8,062 nucleotides of DNA from a virus (taxonomy: Duplodnaviria; Heunggongvirae; Uroviricota; Caudoviricetes). The number at the start of each line of letters is the position of its first letter. The first letter of the stretch is position 1. The stretch lies in the IMG/VR virus record IMGVR_UViG_2802429244_000020. One strand, 5' to 3'. Positions 1 to 8,062 of this stretch are shown one piece after another. Under the pieces are notes generated by a model, which saw only the letters and a program-made list of their open reading frames with translations, searched no databases and was not told the origin of the DNA. A program made the position numbers and the translations under genes.

Positions 1-1014
1 TTACTCTACTGTGGACACTGTGTGGACACTCTCGGCCTCAGTACCACCTCTCAGCGGATTAAGAGAAATGGCGTCCTGAAGGTACTCTGGAGCAAAATGA
101 GCGTAAACCATAGTTTGCTCAATCCGCGTGTGACCTAGTATCCGTTGTAGCGTGATAATACTTCCTCCATTAATCATGAAATGAGTGGCAAAGCTGTGCC
201 TTAGTGCATGTGTGGCTTGCCCCATTGGCAAATCCGGTTTTATTGCTTTCATTGTTCGTCTGAAGCGAGGGTAATCAGCATCAGGGAATAAAAAACCTCG
301 TTTGTTATCCGCGATCATTTTGGCAACAGCCTCTGAGATCGGGACGGTGCGTGGTTTGTTTGTTTTCGTTTTAACAAACGTGACGCGGTTATGAATGATA
401 TTTTCTGCTTTCAAACGAGCTGCTTCTCCCCAACGTGCTCCAGTACTCAGGCAAAGAATCGCAATCTTTTTGTTGTCGCCGTCAAGAGCTGCGAGCAGTA
501 AGGCAATTTCTTCCTGCGTGAGATAGCCTGTGTCTGGTTTTTCCTCCTTAAGCCTTTTTGTCCCTCTGATAGGGTGCTCACCAAAGTATAACTCCGCTTC
601 AATCAGGGCTGTAAACATGCCGCTAATACATGTTAAATCACGATTGATACTCGAAGGTTTAATACCCTGACTTCTTCGGGTGGCGCAGTATTGGCTGATA
701 AGCGATTTCGTAATTTGAAATGCGCATGGGTCATTCGTTATTTTTGTGAAGATTTCAATTTTTCCAAGATTAGATTTCCCATGCTCTTCGTGTTTACCCT
801 TTAAATCCCACCAGATCTGTGTCAGCTCCGACAGACGTCGCTTGTCTGTTGGTTTTGATAGCCATTCTTTATTGTGGTGGTTGTACAACGTGTATTTCTC
901 GAAAGCGACAGCTTCGCTTTTCTTATCAAACTTCCTACGGATGCGTTTTCCATTACGTCCAGTAGGGCGGATGTCCACTTCATATCGACCATCATCGAGT
1001 TTTTTGATTGCCAT
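1..1014 (-). CDS. int: P2-type tyrosine integrase (site-specific recombinase), complete, 337 aa
   Basis: Full ORF on minus strand: ATG at 1014..1012, stop TAA at 3..1. GGAGG lies 8 nt upstream of the ATG on the minus strand. C-terminal tyrosine-recombinase motifs are visible in the translation: ARWGEAARL (Arg box), HALRHSFATHF (HxxR), LGH and TMVYAHF (catalytic Tyr). N-terminus MAIKKLDDGRYEVD is typical of P2-family Int. Confidence 0.95.
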   Translation of the reverse strand: MAIKKLDDGRYEVDIRPTGRNGKRIRRKFDKKSEAVAFEKYTLYNHHNKEWLSKPTDKRRLSELTQIWWDLKGKHEEHGKSNLGKIEIFTKITNDPCAFQITKSLISQYCATRRSQGIKPSSINRDLTCISGMFTALIEAELYFGEHPIRGTKRLKEEKPDTGYLTQEEIALLLAALDGDNKKIAILCLSTGARWGEAARLKAENIIHNRVTFVKTKTNKPRTVPISEAVAKMIADNKRGFLFPDADYPRFRRTMKAIKPDLPMGQATHALRHSFATHFMINGGSIITLQRILGHTRIEQTMVYAHFAPEYLQDAISLNPLRGGTEAESVHTVSTVE

Positions 1015-1129: not shown

Positions 1130-1429
1130 TTAACCAGTCTTTTGACCGGAGTGGGGCGACGTTGTTTCGTTTTGCCCAAAGTGTGCGAGAGCGGGCGCAA
1201 TTTGCCCGGACTCAGGAGCGATCTGATTTGTCATGAACCATAAAGTGTATTTGGTGAATTGTGGGGTCTGCAGGATGTTCATCATGACATCTGTTGGAGG
1301 TGTTGAACGACCACTTTCATAGTAACTCAGCGTGCCATACGGAACCCCTGTTAAATCAGCAAGTTGTTGTCTGCTCAAATACTCTGATTTTCGCATTAAG
1401 ACTATCTTCTCGCTTATCGTGTTTGACAT
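1130..1429 (-). CDS. C: Immunity repressor C (P2 C-like, 99 aa, HTH)
   Basis: 99-aa minus-strand ORF immediately upstream of int and divergent from cox. The N-terminal segment LSRQQLADLTGVPYGTLSYYESG looks like a helix-turn-helix. Size and position match P2 repressor C; the ATG (1429..1427) overlaps the -35 of the rightward promoter. Confidence 0.9.
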   Translation of the reverse strand: MSNTISEKIVLMRKSEYLSRQQLADLTGVPYGTLSYYESGRSTPPTDVMMNILQTPQFTKYTLWFMTNQIAPESGQIAPALAHFGQNETTSPHSGQKTG

Positions 1430-1543: not shown

Positions 1544-1819
1544 ATGAGCAAGCAAGTAACACTCATGACTGATGCGATTCCTTATCAGGAGTTCGCAAAA
1601 CTAATAGGAAAATCGACAGGAGCGGTTCGTCGGATGATCGATAAAGGAAAGCTGCCTGTAATTGATATGACCGATCCACAATCAGCTTCAGGTCGTGCAG
1701 GTGAATATTGGGTATATCTTCCGGCATGGAATAACGGACTAAAACTGGCTTATGAAAGCCGCCCTAAAGAGATTCGTGACGGCTGGTTGATGTGGTTAGG
1801 TCTTGGTGAACCACGTTAA
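1544..1819 (+). CDS. cox: Cox (excisionase / developmental-switch repressor of Pc), 91 aa
   Basis: First gene of the rightward operon, divergent from C. GGAGG at 1534-1538, 5 nt before the ATG. 91 aa, matching the size and position of P2 Cox. Confidence 0.9.
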   Translation: MSKQVTLMTDAIPYQEFAKLIGKSTGAVRRMIDKGKLPVIDMTDPQSASGRAGEYWVYLPAWNNGLKLAYESRPKEIRDGWLMWLGLGEPR

Positions 1820-3311: not shown

Positions 3312-3586
3312 GTATTCGTATCGAAATTGGCGAACGTTATGTCGTTACCAGTGACAGCTTTCAGTTTATTCTCCACGAGAAAAAGAGAGCGGAAAGCGGT
3401 AAAAACGCCGGTCAGGAATGGCTGGCGGTGGTTGGTTATTACCCGAAATTAAGCCAGCTCGTTTCCGGCCTGATGCATCACGATATTCTGACCGGAAGCG
3501 CAAAGTCTTTTGCTGATTTAAACGCGCAGGTTGAGCAACTCAGCAAGCGTTGTTCAGAGGCGTTCTCCAGAGGAGCGTCTGAATGA
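3308..3586 (+). CDS. Hypothetical early-operon protein (92 aa)
   Basis: ATG 3308 overlaps the upstream stop (ATGA). GGAG at 3298-3301 with a 6-nt spacer. No recognisable motif. Confidence 0.65.
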   Translation: MSIRIEIGERYVVTSDSFQFILHEKKRAESGKNAGQEWLAVVGYYPKLSQLVSGLMHHDILTGSAKSFADLNAQVEQLSKRCSEAFSRGASE

Positions 3587-4590
3587 TTACTGATGCTCGT
3601 TGCCATACTGAAAATACCATCAATGTTATTTTTGTTTCAGGTGGAAAGGACAGCCTTGCTCAGTGGCTTGTCGCTATTGAAGAAAATGTACCCATATTGC
3701 CGGTTTTTGCTGATACGGGACATGAACATCCACAGACAATGAAATATCTGGATTATCTGGAAAAACGGCTTGGCCCAATTAAAAGGGTCAGGGCTGATTT
3801 TTCCTGCCGGATTGAATCAAAGCGCAAGTTTATCCAGACCAAATGGCCTGATTTGTTGGTTAACGATTGTGGAATGTCGGAAGAAGAAGCGCACCAGCGC
3901 ATCAGTTGTGCGCTGGAAATTCTCAAACCAACGGGTATCCCGTTTCTTGATTTGTGTCTGTGGAAGGGGCGTTTCCCATCAACCAAAGCCAGATTTTGCA
4001 CATTTGAACTGAAACATGAGCCCGTGCGTTCTCAGGTAATATTGCCTTTACTCAATGAATTTGAGGAAGTGATTAGCTGGCAGGGAGTGCGTGCTCAGGA
4101 ATCGCCATCACGCGCTGCTTTACCTGTCTGGGAAGAGGATGCAGACAACACCCCCGGATTGCATGTATATCGCCCGATTTTGCACTGGAAGCATGAAGAT
4201 GTATTTGCAATAGCCAGAAGACATGACATTAAGCCAAATCCGTTATATCAGCAGGGGTGTGGCCGTGTTGGTTGTATGCCATGTATTCATGTCCGTAAAT
4301 CTGAACTGGCAGAAATTTTTCGCCGGTGGCCGGAGGAAATAAAACGGGTTGCTGAATGGGAACGACTGGTTGCGTCGTGCTCCCGTCGGGGAAATTCCAC
4401 TTTTTTCCCATCCACACATGATCCGCTACGCGCAGAACGTCGTATTGAGATTGTAACAGTCGAGGCATACGGAATAGAAACCTACCATGACTGGACAATG
4501 ACAACGCGTGGGGGTACTCAGTTTGATTTACTGGCTTCGGCGAATGATAAAGCCGTTTGCAGTAGTGTCTATGCCGGTGTATGTGAATGA
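3583..4590 (+). CDS. PAPS-reductase-like PP-loop ATP-pyrophosphatase family protein (335 aa)
   Basis: N-terminal FVSGGKDS matches the SGGxDS PP-loop motif of the PAPS reductase / adenine-nucleotide alpha-hydrolase superfamily. Cys-rich C-terminal segment QQGCGRVGCMPC. AGGAG at 3571-3575 (7-nt spacer); ATGA overlap at both ends. Confidence 0.8.
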   Translation: MITDARCHTENTINVIFVSGGKDSLAQWLVAIEENVPILPVFADTGHEHPQTMKYLDYLEKRLGPIKRVRADFSCRIESKRKFIQTKWPDLLVNDCGMSEEEAHQRISCALEILKPTGIPFLDLCLWKGRFPSTKARFCTFELKHEPVRSQVILPLLNEFEEVISWQGVRAQESPSRAALPVWEEDADNTPGLHVYRPILHWKHEDVFAIARRHDIKPNPLYQQGCGRVGCMPCIHVRKSELAEIFRRWPEEIKRVAEWERLVASCSRRGNSTFFPSTHDPLRAERRIEIVTVEAYGIETYHDWTMTTRGGTQFDLLASANDKAVCSSVYAGVCE

Positions 4591-6872
4591 GTCATTCTTT
4601 CCAGGAGCAATACACCTGCGTACCTCCGTCTGCGTTTGCCGCAGGCACCGGTAAGGCGTTTACCGGTGCTTATGCATGGAACGCGCCACGCGAGGCTGTC
4701 GGGCGCGAAAGACCCCTTACACGTGACGAGATGCGTCAGGTGCAAAGTGTTTTATCCACGATTAACCGCCTGCCTTACTTTTTGCGCTCGCTGTTTACTT
4801 CACGCTATGACTACATCCGGCGCAATAAAAGCCCGGTGCACGGGTTTTATTTCCTCACATCCACTTTTCAGCGTCGTTTATGGCCGCGCATTGAGCGTGT
4901 GAATCAGCGCCATGAAATGAACACTGACGCGTCGTTGCTGTTTCTGGCAGAGCGTGACCATTATGCGCGTTTGCCTGGAATGAATGACAAGGAGCTGAAA
5001 AAGTTTGCCGCCCGTATCTCATCACAGCTTTTCATGATGTATGAGGAACTCTGCGATGCCTGGGTGGATGCGCATGGCGAGAAAGAATCGCTGTTTACGG
5101 ATGAGGCGCAGGCTCACCTGTATGGTCATGTTGCTGGCGCTGCACGAGCTTTCAATATTTCCCCTCTCTACTGGAAAAAATACCGTAAAGGGCAGATAAC
5201 CACGAGGCAGGCATATTCTGCCATTGCCCGTCTGTTTAACGATGAGTGGTGGACTCATCAGCTTAAAGGCCAGCGTATGCGCTGGCATGAGGCGTTACTG
5301 ATTGCTGTCGGGGAGGTGAATAAAGACCGTTCTCCTTATGCCAGTAAACATGCCATTCGTGATGTACGTGCACGCCGCCAGGCAAATCTGGAATTTCTTA
5401 AATCGTGTGACCTTGAAAACAGGGAAACCGGCGAGCGCATCGACCTTATCAGTAAGGTGATGGGCAGTATTTCTAATCCTGAAATTCGCCGGATGGAGCT
5501 GATGAACACCATTGCCGGTATTGAGCGTTACGCCGCCGCAGAGGGTGATGTGGGGATGTTTATCACGCTGACCGCGCCGTCAAAGTATCACCCGACACGT
5601 CAGGTCAGAAAAGGCGAAAGTAAAACCGTTCAGCTTAATCACGGCTGGAACGATGAGGCATTTAATCCAAAGGATGCGCAGCGTTATCTCTGCCGCATCT
5701 GGAGCCTGATGCGCACGGCATTCAAGGATAATGATTTACAGGTCTACGGTTTGCGTGTCGTCGAGCCACACCACGACGGAACGCCGCACTGGCATATGAT
5801 GCTTTTTTGTAATCCGCGCCAGCGTAACCAGATTATCGAAATCATGCGTCGCTATGCGCTCAAAGAGGATGGCGACGAAAGAGGAGCCGCGCGAAACCGT
5901 TTTCAGGCAAAACACCTTAATCGGGGCGGTGCTGCGGGGTATATCGCGAAATACATCTCAAAAAACATCGACGGCTATGCACTGGATGGTCAGCTCGATA
6001 ACGATACCGGCAGACCTCTGAAAGATACTGCCGCGGCTGTTACTGCATGGGCGTCAACGTGGCGCATCCCGCAATTTAAAACGGTTGGTCTGCCGACAAT
6101 GGGGGCTTACCGTGAACTACGCAAATTGCCGCGCGGCGTCAGCATTGCTGATGAGTTTGACGAGCGCGTCGAGGCTGCACGCGCCGCCGCAGACAGTGGT
6201 GATTTTGCGTTGTATATCAGCGCGCAGGGTGGGGCAAATGTCCCGCGCGATTGTCAGACTGTCAGGGTCGCCCGTAGCCCGTCGGATGACGTTAACGAGT
6301 ACGAGGAAGAGGTCGAGAGAGTGGTCGGCATTTACGCGCCGCATCTCGGCGCGCGTCATATTCATATCACCAGAACGACGGACTGGCGCATTGTGCCGAA
6401 AGTTCCGGTCGTTGAGCCTTTGACTTTAAAAAGCGGCATCGCCGCGCCTCGGAGTCCTGTCAATAACTGTGGAAAGCCTGCCAGCAGTGATGCTTCGTTA
6501 CCGGCTCCCACACCTTCTGAACACGCCGCAGCAGTGCTTAATCTGGTAGATGACGGTGTTATCGAATGGAATGACCCGGAGGTTGTGAGGGCGCTCAGGG
6601 GGGCATTAAAACACGGCCTGAGAAGACCAAATCGCCAGCAAAGAAACGGAAGCCCGTTAAAACCACATGAAATAGCGCCATCGGCCAGACTGACCCGGTC
6701 GGAACGAATGCAAATTACCCGTATCCGCGTTGACCTTGCTCAGAACGGTATCAGGCCTCAGCGATGGGAGCTTGAGGCGCTGGCGCGTGGCGCGACTGTA
6801 AATTATGACGGGAAAAAATTCGCTTATCCGGTCGCTGATGGATGGCCAGGGTTCACAACTGTAATAGATTGA
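4587..6872 (+). CDS. A: Rolling-circle replication initiator endonuclease A (P2 gpA-like, 761 aa)
   Basis: 761-aa ORF at the conserved position. HUH-type motif HWH (nt 5787-5795, within GTPHWHMMLF) and two tyrosines four residues apart in YIAKYISK (Tyr codons 5940-5942 and 5952-5954), the hallmark of P2 A-type nicking initiators. Confidence 0.95.
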   Translation: MSHSFQEQYTCVPPSAFAAGTGKAFTGAYAWNAPREAVGRERPLTRDEMRQVQSVLSTINRLPYFLRSLFTSRYDYIRRNKSPVHGFYFLTSTFQRRLWPRIERVNQRHEMNTDASLLFLAERDHYARLPGMNDKELKKFAARISSQLFMMYEELCDAWVDAHGEKESLFTDEAQAHLYGHVAGAARAFNISPLYWKKYRKGQITTRQAYSAIARLFNDEWWTHQLKGQRMRWHEALLIAVGEVNKDRSPYASKHAIRDVRARRQANLEFLKSCDLENRETGERIDLISKVMGSISNPEIRRMELMNTIAGIERYAAAEGDVGMFITLTAPSKYHPTRQVRKGESKTVQLNHGWNDEAFNPKDAQRYLCRIWSLMRTAFKDNDLQVYGLRVVEPHHDGTPHWHMMLFCNPRQRNQIIEIMRRYALKEDGDERGAARNRFQAKHLNRGGAAGYIAKYISKNIDGYALDGQLDNDTGRPLKDTAAAVTAWASTWRIPQFKTVGLPTMGAYRELRKLPRGVSIADEFDERVEAARAAADSGDFALYISAQGGANVPRDCQTVRVARSPSDDVNEYEEEVERVVGIYAPHLGARHIHITRTTDWRIVPKVPVVEPLTLKSGIAAPRSPVNNCGKPASSDASLPAPTPSEHAAAVLNLVDDGVIEWNDPEVVRALRGALKHGLRRPNRQQRNGSPLKPHEIAPSARLTRSERMQITRIRVDLAQNGIRPQRWELEALARGATVNYDGKKFAYPVADGWPGFTTVID

Positions 6873-6978: not shown

Positions 6979-7007
6979 GCCTCATTTTTAATGAGGCCGT
7001 TTTTATT
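6979..7007. terminator. Bidirectional intrinsic terminator candidate between A and the leftward cargo genes
   Basis: 8-bp perfect inverted repeat GCCTCATT / AATGAGGC (6979-6986 and 6990-6997) with a 3-nt loop, followed on plus by CGTTTTTATT and preceded by AATAATAAAACGATAA (a T-rich tract on the minus strand). It lies 107 nt after the A stop and about 40 nt after the stop of the leftward 223-aa gene. Confidence 0.6.
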
Positions 7008-7037: not shown

Positions 7038-7709
7038 TTAAAGGGCAAACCTTTCTATGGTTCGATACACCTTGTCAAAAATTTGCTCTGAAAGTGAAAT
7101 GGACCCATTTGTGTTAATTTCTAATGACTCATAACCGGTCACATCCTTAACATTAAGTTTAACTTTATCAATTGTAAAATTTGCATTTTTGAAAATGTTT
7201 CTTATTTCCATAAGTGCGTCACTTGATGACTCAAGTTCCAGTATGCCGGATGTGTGCTTGCTAAACGTTAAGTCTTTTAATTTTGCTTTGTGCACTTGTA
7301 TTTTTTCAAAGTGCGGGGTCAGGAAATAAATGAAGTCCTCAATTTTGATGTTGAGATTTGACACATTAAAATCAGAATGTGTTGATTTAATTATGTTTGA
7401 TATGAAGTTTTTAATGCTTCTGGGAGGCGACTCAATGATTAAGATGAAGTTTTTACCTTTTGTTGTGTAAAGCCAAAAGTTAAATTGAATATATTTTAGC
7501 TGTGTATATTGAGTCTCGTTTCCATATGGATCAACGATTATCTCGTTGACCTCTACTTTCTCGATGTATCGAGATGATATTGCATTTTCTTCATATGAGT
7601 TGATACTAAATCCCCAGCCTTTATCACTATCAAAAGGAGTGTTAATGATAGACTGATATAAACTATCAAGTCCAGCAGGGAAGTTGGCAGTAAACCATTT
7701 TGTTTTCAT
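7038..7709 (-). CDS. Hypothetical AT-rich cargo protein (223 aa), distal gene of a leftward operon in the post-A variable locus
   Basis: Complete minus-strand ORF. ATG at 7709..7707 is preceded by AAGGAG (plus 7715-7720, 5-nt spacer). Only 11 nt separate it from the upstream gene's stop. No Cys, no long hydrophobic segment, rich in N/I/K/F/S. No motif I can recognise. Confidence 0.75.
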   Translation of the reverse strand: MKTKWFTANFPAGLDSLYQSIINTPFDSDKGWGFSINSYEENAISSRYIEKVEVNEIIVDPYGNETQYTQLKYIQFNFWLYTTKGKNFILIIESPPRSIKNFISNIIKSTHSDFNVSNLNIKIEDFIYFLTPHFEKIQVHKAKLKDLTFSKHTSGILELESSSDALMEIRNIFKNANFTIDKVKLNVKDVTGYESLEINTNGSISLSEQIFDKVYRTIERFAL

Positions 7710-7720
7710 AACAACTCCTT

Positions 7721-8062
7721 TTATTTATCAGTAACAACCTCAATTGTGTTTGAGGCGATAATACTGTTTGAAATTTCGCGAGCGGTTTTTTCAAGTGCTA
7801 ATAATAGCAGTTTTTCCTTCTCTTTATCTACATTTTGACGATTTGCATATTCGTTTATATTTTTGTACTTATAAACACCGCGAACGATATACGAGAATAA
7901 CTTGCAATTATCTGGGTCGACAAATTGAGCCTCGAATTCATATTTGTCCGAGTCTTTATAAGTGTCAACAACAGAACTCCAAATGATTTTGGTAATATAA
8001 AATCCTTTTCCTAACAACTCTTTAAACTCGAGAGAGTCAAGAACGCTGCGCCCTTTTAGTGA
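7721..8062 (-). CDS. 3' end (last 113 codons) of a larger leftward cargo gene; 5' part lies beyond the window
   Basis: The minus-strand reading frame is open from the window edge (8062) to the TAA at 7723..7721. The track's start at 8017 is a TTG, and translation continues upstream without a stop (…SLKGRSVLDSLEFKELLGKGFYITK…). Same low G+C as the downstream gene. Confidence 0.7.
   Translation of the reverse strand, partial: SLKGRSVLDSLEFKELLGKGFYITKIIWSSVVDTYKDSDKYEFEAQFVDPDNCKLFSYIVRGVYKYKNINEYANRQNVDKEKEKLLLLALEKTAREISNSIIASNTIEVVTDK

Follow-up and report, generated by a model that had tools for sequence, protein, structure and literature searches.

The gene and the cargo to which it belongs

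The DNA analysed in this work (IMG/VR record IMGVR_UViG_2802429244_000020; referred to below as the window) is a stretch of 8,062 nucleotides representing the left arm of a P2-like prophage. The subject of this work is an open reading frame (ORF) at positions 7038-7709, which a preliminary description made from the sequence alone had presented as the distal gene of a coupled pair in a defence hotspot, the product of which could be an effector, a sensor or a specificity partner of an unfamiliar type. The results presented here lead to a different placement, viz. that this protein is Hp3, the third component of a defence system already known (Rst_3HP, hereafter 3HP) and present here in a divergent form, and that it is no unfamiliar effector.

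The ORF is complete, as described earlier, and lies on the minus strand; it comprises 672 nt (stop codon included), has ATG as its start codon and codes for a protein of 223 amino acids (aa) devoid of Cys. The strong Shine-Dalgarno site noted in the preliminary description is the sequence AAGGAG, located 5 nt before the ATG. As this site follows immediately after the TAA stop codon (7721-7723) of the upstream gene, Hp2, leaving an intergenic gap of only 11 nt, the two genes are tightly coupled. Proteins identical or nearly identical to Hp3 are encoded by well over 1,000 contigs from Escherichia coli and Salmonella, the protein matches phrog_5850 (E 1.4e-86), and a profile of the family retrieves 726 cluster representatives, nearly all of which are 220-238 aa long. 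Due to these observations, and because the N-terminal sequence MKxKW is retained among the homologues, which also supports the chosen start codon, the ORF is on comparative grounds a genuine gene and not a chance reading frame. The maximum mean hydropathy over 19 residues (Kyte-Doolittle) is 0.72; there is thus no transmembrane segment in Hp3, in agreement with what was described, and a role as a membrane effector was rejected. A Pfam scan of Hp3 gave nothing above noise (MutS_IV, E 0.054, is below the cut-off), an NCBIfam scan gave no match, and searches of the sequences in the Protein Data Bank (PDB), carried out both with the single sequence and with a 71-sequence profile, gave nothing usable.

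The same cargo is present at 99.2-99.5% identity in 9 complete E. coli chromosomes (99.5% for the locus L001), and the fragment of Hp2 in the window is identical to residues 258-370 of Hp2 from L001. The cargo in L001 consists of three co-directional genes encoding proteins of 354, 370 and 223 aa, the first two of which (Hp1 and Hp2) overlap by 4 bp, and gpA and the portal gene flank it on either side. The pair of genes seen in the window is therefore the visible end of a triple: Hp3 is indeed a distal gene coupled to the one upstream of it, but the operon has three genes, of which the window cuts the second and lacks the first. The location of the cargo in the gpA-gpQ hotspot of P2-like phages, as this hotspot is defined in PMC9122126, is likewise borne out, with gpA to the left of the cargo (its homologue in L001 is annotated as 'replication endonuclease') and the portal gene of L001 on the far side. 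The GC content of the cargo is about 33%, versus 50-58% in the flanking replication gene.

Identification of the cargo as a divergent 3HP system

The PADLOC models for 3HP (PDLC03004-03006) go back to the 'hp + hp + hp' system, which Rousset et al. 2022 obtained as plasmid pFR109 by cloning from this P2 hotspot in E. coli E1114 (PMC9122126). This founding system consists of three genes without any clear predicted domain and it protects against P1 (PMC9122126); among the eight phages examined, P1 was the only one against which the E1114 allele gave protection (PMC9122126). No published mechanism for 3HP was found in the literature. The PADLOC profile for Hp3 (PDLC03006) matches the window protein with an E of 6e-8 and 30.7 bits, and residues 2-201 of the protein correspond to positions 3-199 of the 227 in the profile. 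This match is weak and only just reached, but it is collinear and extends over about 90% of the length. The fragment of Hp2 in the window matches the C-terminal part of the PADLOC Hp2 profile (E 1.6e-10). Hp1 lies outside of the window and it was scored in L001, the cargo of which is shared with the 9 E. coli chromosomes; here, all three PADLOC models are matched at full length and in the right order (Hp1, 2.2e-63; Hp2, 3.6e-37; Hp3, 5e-8). In BLASTP comparisons with the tested proteins encoded by pFR109, the sequence identities are 35% for Hp1, 31% for Hp2 and 19% for Hp3 (the last over 201 aa, E 1e-10), and the alignments are collinear throughout. Further, the accession of the Hp2 protein of this very cargo is listed in the hotspot-content table of Rousset et al. 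as 'hypothetical + hypothetical + hypothetical'.

The features by which 3HP is recognized from sequence are found together, viz. a match of Hp3 to its profile, Hp2 immediately upstream on the same strand, Hp1 in the first position, and the gpA-gpQ location. As in the founding system, the cargo comprises Hp1, Hp2 and Hp3, arranged in this order on a single strand and in the same P2 hotspot; the three proteins match both the models and the tested proteins over their full length, and none of them contains a classical Pfam domain. The difference between the two lies in the sequences, this cargo being a divergent allele as judged by the identities given above. Based on these sequence matches, the 223-aa ORF is identified as Hp3, the last protein of a divergent Rst_3HP-type operon in a P2-like prophage. 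Its characterization as a protein of an unfamiliar type is not upheld, as Hp3 matches a catalogued and experimentally validated system and its neighbours match Hp2 and Hp1 strongly. The preliminary description had held that a high-coverage match to a characterized protein would speak against it; such a match exists at the level of the system to which the protein belongs, but it does not extend to the biochemical function of Hp3. The phage exclusion genes of P2 itself, Old and Tin, occupy the same P2-like locus and have the same role of excluding other phages (PMC9122126). Identity of the cargo with Old (an ATPase combined with a Toprim nuclease) or with Tin was rejected, since there is no similarity to either: the PADLOC scan identified only Hp3 and Hp2, and the Pfam scan gave neither Old nor Tin.

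One other E. coli chromosome (NZ_CP018206.1, positions 3539267-3540142) contains a variant of the Hp2-Hp3 region with 75% identity at the DNA level, which suggests that intermediate alleles of the 3HP lineage exist within E. coli.

Relationship of Hp1 and Hp2 to the GAPS4 system

GAPS4, which is also known from Mahata et al. 2024, is a two-gene defence system in which GAPS4a is an enzyme of the PD-(D/E)xK type with the motif HGxD...SxK (bioRxiv 10.1101/2025.09.07.674715). According to the same preprint, which makes no mention of 3HP, GAPS4a and GAPS4b assemble into a 2:2 complex, the two GAPS4b subunits of which are predicted to make up a ring; the system degrades the DNA of phage and host alike when DNA breaks occur, it has a broad range, and it is characterized as a double-edged sword which activates itself when DNA is damaged (bioRxiv 10.1101/2025.09.07.674715). 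For the comparisons reported here, File S1 of this preprint was the source of GAPS4a sequences, and its AF3 model file that of both RiKo proteins (GAPS4a and GAPS4b).

The Pfam family PF26115 (PDDEXK_GAPS4) is found on nearly all homologues of Hp1, where membership in this family is based on the precomputed Pfam labels of the homologues and on our own hhalign runs. The alignment of Hp1 with GAPS4a has a probability of 97.4% (E 1.2e-11, 242 columns). The invariant residues of Hp1 are H50, P51, D53 and D72-L73-K74, and D53 aligns with D49 of GAPS4a, the change of which from D to A abolishes defence (bioRxiv 10.1101/2025.09.07.674715). Although the active-site motif differs in its details, being HPxD...DLK in Hp1 versus HGxD...SxK in GAPS4a, it is intact, and by these alignments Hp1 is assigned as a GAPS4a-type PD-(D/E)xK nuclease.

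A relationship of Hp2 to GAPS4b becomes visible only when a profile is used. A GAPS4b profile was constructed from 23 sequences (the ORFs located downstream of GAPS4a, taken from 22 metagenome loci, together with RiKo), and in hhalign it matches Hp2 with a probability of 90.1% (E 1.6e-6) over 217 columns comprising residues 12-232 of Hp2. However, no significant similarity to Hp2 was detected by hhalign with a single GAPS4b sequence. In control comparisons of the same kind (viz. Hp2 with GAPS4a, Hp2 with Hp1, GAPS4b with Hp1 and GAPS4b with Hp3) the probabilities were all below 1%. We therefore regard Hp2, with moderate confidence, as a homologue of GAPS4b and a scaffold of the GAPS4b type. 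The predicted structure of Hp2 consists of an N-terminal four-helix domain (residues 10-68), after which strands and helices follow one another in the order also seen in Hp3. The Hp2 of L001 (6922-8034) further contains, at residues ~230-252 inside this second part, which is RdgC-like in its predicted fold (see below), a disordered, low-confidence and strongly acidic insertion rich in Asp, Glu and Ser; the overall isoelectric point (pI) of the protein is 5.1, and the insertion could be a DNA-mimicking or autoinhibitory loop.

The remote-homology comparison which the preliminary description had proposed as a check thus yields counterparts for the first two proteins of the operon, but none for Hp3 (Hp3 profile against the GAPS4b profile, E 0.26). 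A nuclease subunit and a partner subunit are present in both GAPS4 and 3HP, and both systems are carried in hotspots of P2-like prophages. However, GAPS4 has two genes and is without a partner resembling Hp3; in the GAPS4 loci that were sampled, no conserved third gene (an ORF of ~225 aa) was found. As Hp3 is without a GAPS4 counterpart, the operon should be regarded as a three-gene relative of GAPS4 and not as a GAPS4 system. By analogy, the a2b2 DNase of GAPS4 would provide the best mechanistic template for 3HP. The RiKo GAPS4 pair of E. coli is located in a P2-like contig from IMG/VR (L014, 3085-5158) in a different hotspot from that of 3HP. Its neighbours are ORFs of 749 and 175 aa upstream and of 396 and 172 aa downstream, which, judged by their sizes only, look like tail-fibre genes and like sheath and tube genes, respectively. 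This site, compared with the gpA-gpQ site of 3HP, indicates that related nuclease systems occupy two hotspots of P2-like phages.

Predicted fold and conserved residues of Hp3

Structure prediction with a fold search had also been proposed. The AlphaFold2 model of Hp3, based on 38 homologues, is a confident one, with a predicted local distance difference test score of 91.1 and a predicted template-modelling (TM) score of 0.84, and a Foldseek search with this model retrieves RdgC first (E 5e-7, probability 1.00, TM 0.52-0.56), followed by Iml3 and CENP-L. The models of Hp2 and Hp3 show the same succession of secondary-structure elements, and both proteins are accordingly predicted to have the DNA-binding fold of RdgC, Iml3 and CENP-L. 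The homologue of Hp3 in Pseudomonas phage 54-4 has independently been labelled 'RdgC-like exonuclease' by its GenBank depositor.

RdgC is non-catalytic; its dimers are rings, the basic pore of which binds DNA in a non-specific manner (PMC11077077). The predicted likeness of Hp3 to RdgC of E. coli (PDB 2OWL) is in the fold as modelled; no Pfam match to RdgC at E <=1 was obtained for either Hp3 or Hp2, and RdgC was not among the matches in the profile search of PDB sequences. Hp3 also differs from RdgC in being 80 residues shorter (223 vs 303 aa), and RdgC is a housekeeping homodimer encoded outside of any nuclease operon. A parallel in architecture is provided by Iml3-Chl4, in which a small and a large member of this fold form a horseshoe-shaped heterodimer with a basic, DNA-contacting face (PMC11077077). 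In Iml3-Chl4 (and similarly CENP-L-CENP-N), the combination of Iml3 (~245 aa) with the larger Chl4 resembles that of Hp3 (223 aa) with Hp2 (370 aa). However, as the Iml3-Chl4 proteins are eukaryotic, have no nuclease partner and show no sequence similarity to those of 3HP, this parallel is architectural only. The RexA protein of phage lambda, which belongs to a system for phage exclusion, binds DNA and is RdgC-like (PMC11077077), but its structural match to Hp3 is much weaker; further, RexA works together with the membrane protein RexB, whereas the 3HP operon contains a nuclease and no membrane protein. A RexAB-like pair was rejected because the operon has no multi-pass membrane partner.

Across 71 diverse homologues the best-conserved positions of Hp3 are G33, G63, P61, F78, P96, S161 and G202. 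A PPRSxKxF motif is also conserved in this family, as are about eight basic positions, viz. K2, K4, R47, K51, K72, R97, K100 and K182. In contrast, no constellation of Asp, Glu, His or Cys residues suggestive of an active site was found in these homologues, in keeping with the preliminary description, in which no catalytic motif could be recognized. The name given to the homologue in phage 54-4, and the distal position of Hp3 in a defence operon, could be taken as indications that Hp3 is itself the effector, i.e. a nuclease or a toxin of an unrecognized family. However, it will be incorrect to interpret this name as showing an enzymatic activity, as 'exonuclease' is a legacy database name for RdgC, which is a non-catalytic DNA-binding ring (PMC11077077). 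With no acidic, His or Cys cluster, no match in Pfam, NCBIfam or PDB sequences to any enzyme, and a bona fide PD-(D/E)xK nuclease (Hp1) already present in the operon, this explanation is very improbable, and Hp3 is predicted to be non-enzymatic from the lack of conserved catalytic residues. Of the three roles that had been suggested for it, those of a sensor or a specificity partner are the likelier ones and that of an effector is not supported.

Conservation of the operon and divergence of Hp3

In all 13 independent loci where Hp1 or Hp2 is visible, Hp3 directly follows Hp1-Hp2. These loci include 7 from Enterobacterales (L001-L007) and others from Marinobacterium, Ralstonia, Vibrio parahaemolyticus, Alteromonas and a Pf-like filamentous phage of Pseudomonas. 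A search with a narrow Hp3 alignment led to the 7 Enterobacterales loci only, and the distant contexts were obtained via contigs that encode homologues. The gaps among the genes of the operon are 0-11 nt, or the genes overlap. The locus from Ralstonia mojiangensis (L011) at first appeared to be a two-gene system lacking Hp3; however, in a six-frame search the ORF at 6122-6850 matches the Hp3 profile with an E of 1.4e-58. The public gene call at this position gives a product of only 88 aa, whereas the ORF is intact from stop to stop; missed or shortened calls of Hp3 would thus make 3HP look like a two-gene system. A complete Hp1-Hp2-Hp3 cassette (E 2.3e-83, 7.4e-67 and 4.4e-41, respectively) is also present in Pseudomonas phage 54-4 (OR621021.1; L047, 485-3252). 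This phage is a Pf-like filamentous phage (Tubulavirales) and the cassette adjoins its repressor and excisionase genes; the 3HP operon is therefore a cargo of very different mobile elements.

Hp3 could be envisaged as an unrelated passenger gene (a moron) which happens to lie beside a two-gene system, given that two-gene systems of the GAPS4 type work alone. However, Hp3 is found immediately 3' of Hp1-Hp2 in every one of these loci, in distant taxa and in different mobile elements, with minimal gaps or gene overlap. Further, the definition of the system by PADLOC requires all three genes, and the sampled GAPS4 loci are without such a gene. A passenger role is thus exceedingly improbable, and it must be counted, together with an enzymatic role, as unlikely.

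The three subunits differ in their rates of evolution. For loci within L001-L013, the mean pairwise identity declines steadily along the operon (Hp1, 57%; Hp2, 50%; Hp3, 36%), and it is Hp3 that shows the lowest conservation in 54 of the 55 pairs of loci. As the fastest-evolving protein of the system, Hp3 is the foremost candidate for a determinant of trigger specificity. A rival explanation is that Hp3 senses a specific phage protein, such as a factor involved in recombination or replication, or one with an anti-defence role, and signals to Hp1-Hp2, in which case DNA binding would be irrelevant. The rapid divergence of Hp3, which is also evident in its low identity to the tested Hp3, is what is expected for a surface involved in an arms race, and the narrow phage specificity of the tested system, as well as the action of RdgC itself on the RecA pathway (PMC11077077), can be viewed in the same manner. 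However, fast evolution may merely mean that a scaffold is under weak constraint, and the retention across the family of the basic positions and of PPRSxK is a better fit to a common ligand (viz. DNA or Hp2). We consider sensing of a specific phage protein to be rather improbable.

Proposed function of Hp3 in the 3HP system

The reading that we favour, to which a probability of about 0.6 is assigned, is that the protein is the Hp3 of a divergent 3HP operon and that it serves as a non-enzymatic, RdgC-like partner of a GAPS4-type nuclease, pairing with Hp2. In the mechanism proposed, Hp3 would pair with the RdgC-like body of Hp2 to form a DNA-binding horseshoe or ring, and this Hp2-Hp3 module would detect either a state of DNA that is produced by infection (ends, breaks or linear DNA) or a factor. 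The helical domain at the N-terminus of Hp2 would serve as the docking site for the Hp1 nuclease, in the manner in which GAPS4a is predicted to dock on GAPS4b, and sensing of the trigger would release or position the nuclease. Hp1 would then degrade the phage DNA and probably also that of the host, with an outcome resembling abortive infection.

Several points weigh against this reading. The sequence identity between the present copy and the tested 3HP proteins amounts to only 19-35%, and the defence activity of this copy is a prediction; the homology of Hp2 to GAPS4b has a probability of only 90% and extends over the N-terminal 60% of the former. No sequence similarity of Hp3 to Hp2, GAPS4b or RdgC was detectable by hhalign, Pfam or the PDB profile search, and its link to the RdgC-like fold comes entirely from the predicted structure. 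This fold is, moreover, shared at lower Z by proteins without DNA-binding activity, such as KA1 domains and adaptin appendages, and Hp3 is mildly acidic (pI 6.1), which is untypical of a strong DNA binder. What we propose for the trigger, for DNA binding by Hp3 and for its pairing with Hp2 is a matter of inference. Lastly, the tested 3HP protects against P1 only whereas GAPS4 has a broad range, and due to this the trigger may differ from simple DNA breaks.

The same difference in range bears on two further proposals. According to the first of these, 3HP is a three-subunit offshoot of GAPS4 in which Hp3, a truncated RdgC-like paralogue, has replaced the second GAPS4b, so that the a2b2 arrangement has become an asymmetric Hp1-Hp2-Hp3 complex and the face contributed by Hp3 re-tunes which DNA structure or phage factor causes the system to fire. 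If the machine is asymmetric and tuned by Hp3 in this manner, the narrow range of 3HP as compared to GAPS4 would be explained; we put this scheme forward as a tentative possibility. According to the second, which appears doubtful to us, Hp3 does not sense DNA but acts as a built-in, antitoxin-like brake on Hp1-Hp2, from which it is displaced, titrated or degraded on infection. As GAPS4 functions without an Hp3-like protein, Hp3 can be viewed as an add-on to a complete pair of nuclease and scaffold, and since GAPS4 self-activates on DNA damage, an extra restraint would be useful to a prophage. The distal and tightly coupled position of Hp3, due to which it is made only after its partners, and the restriction of the tested system to P1 are also in accordance with a brake. 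However, it is more common for antitoxins to be the product of the first gene, or to be small and labile, whereas Hp3 is by its model a well-folded protein of 26 kDa, and the RdgC/Iml3 fold predicted for it points to roles in DNA binding or as a scaffold. A role of Hp3 as an RdgC-like partner of Hp2 is the interpretation that we consider the most likely.

Other features of the prophage arm

The coordinates of the features in the window are listed in Table 1. A terminator scan of L001 gave a hit on both strands at 6179-6199, and the same sequence is present in the window; the hairpin located there is likely a bidirectional terminator. The ORF with a PAPS-reductase domain overlaps the start of gpA by 4 bp and it is missing from the otherwise syntenic L001, where the DUF5405 gene is followed directly by gpA. 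The site of this ORF appears to be another position, the second in this phage, at which the cargo varies.

Table 1. Features of the left arm of the P2-like prophage in the window
Feature	Position	Strand	Remarks
Integrase	1-1014	-	
Helix-turn-helix repressor (C repressor)	1130-1429	-	
Cox	1544-1819	+	
Small genes (DUF2732, DUF5405, TraR/DksA)			
ORF with PAPS-reductase domain	3583-4590	+	335 aa; PF01507, E 5.4e-35
Replication endonuclease gpA, P2-type	4587-6872	+	761 aa; left boundary of the gpA-gpQ cargo hotspot
GC-rich hairpin GCCTCAT-TTTTA-ATGAGGC	6979-6997		T-runs on both strands; between convergent gpA and Hp3
Hp3 coding sequence, third gene of the 3HP-type operon	7038-7709	-	223 aa + stop; RdgC/Iml3-like predicted fold
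Shine-Dalgarno site AAGGAG of Hp3	7715-7720	-	5 nt before ATG; read from the sequence
Hp2, C-terminal 113 codons + stop	7721-8062	-	full protein 370 aa; gene runs off the window end

Significance of the results

The 3HP system is listed by both of the main tools for finding defence systems (PADLOC and DefenseFinder), and its proteins are without annotated domains. What is new in the present work is the assignment of these proteins, viz. Hp1 as a GAPS4a-type nuclease, Hp2 as a probable scaffold of the GAPS4b type, and Hp3 as a second protein with a predicted RdgC/Iml3 fold. This placing of its parts leads to a concrete and testable model for the system as a whole, and it links two families of defence systems, 3HP and GAPS4, which have apparently been treated as unrelated in the literature. 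If the structural models are correct, then 3HP would also be a further case, after RexA of phage lambda, in which the RdgC fold is used in phage exclusion. For the annotation of genomes, it follows that a 223-aa 'hypothetical protein' found on more than 1,000 contigs of E. coli and Salmonella can now be annotated as subunit Hp3 of a defence system of the 3HP type.

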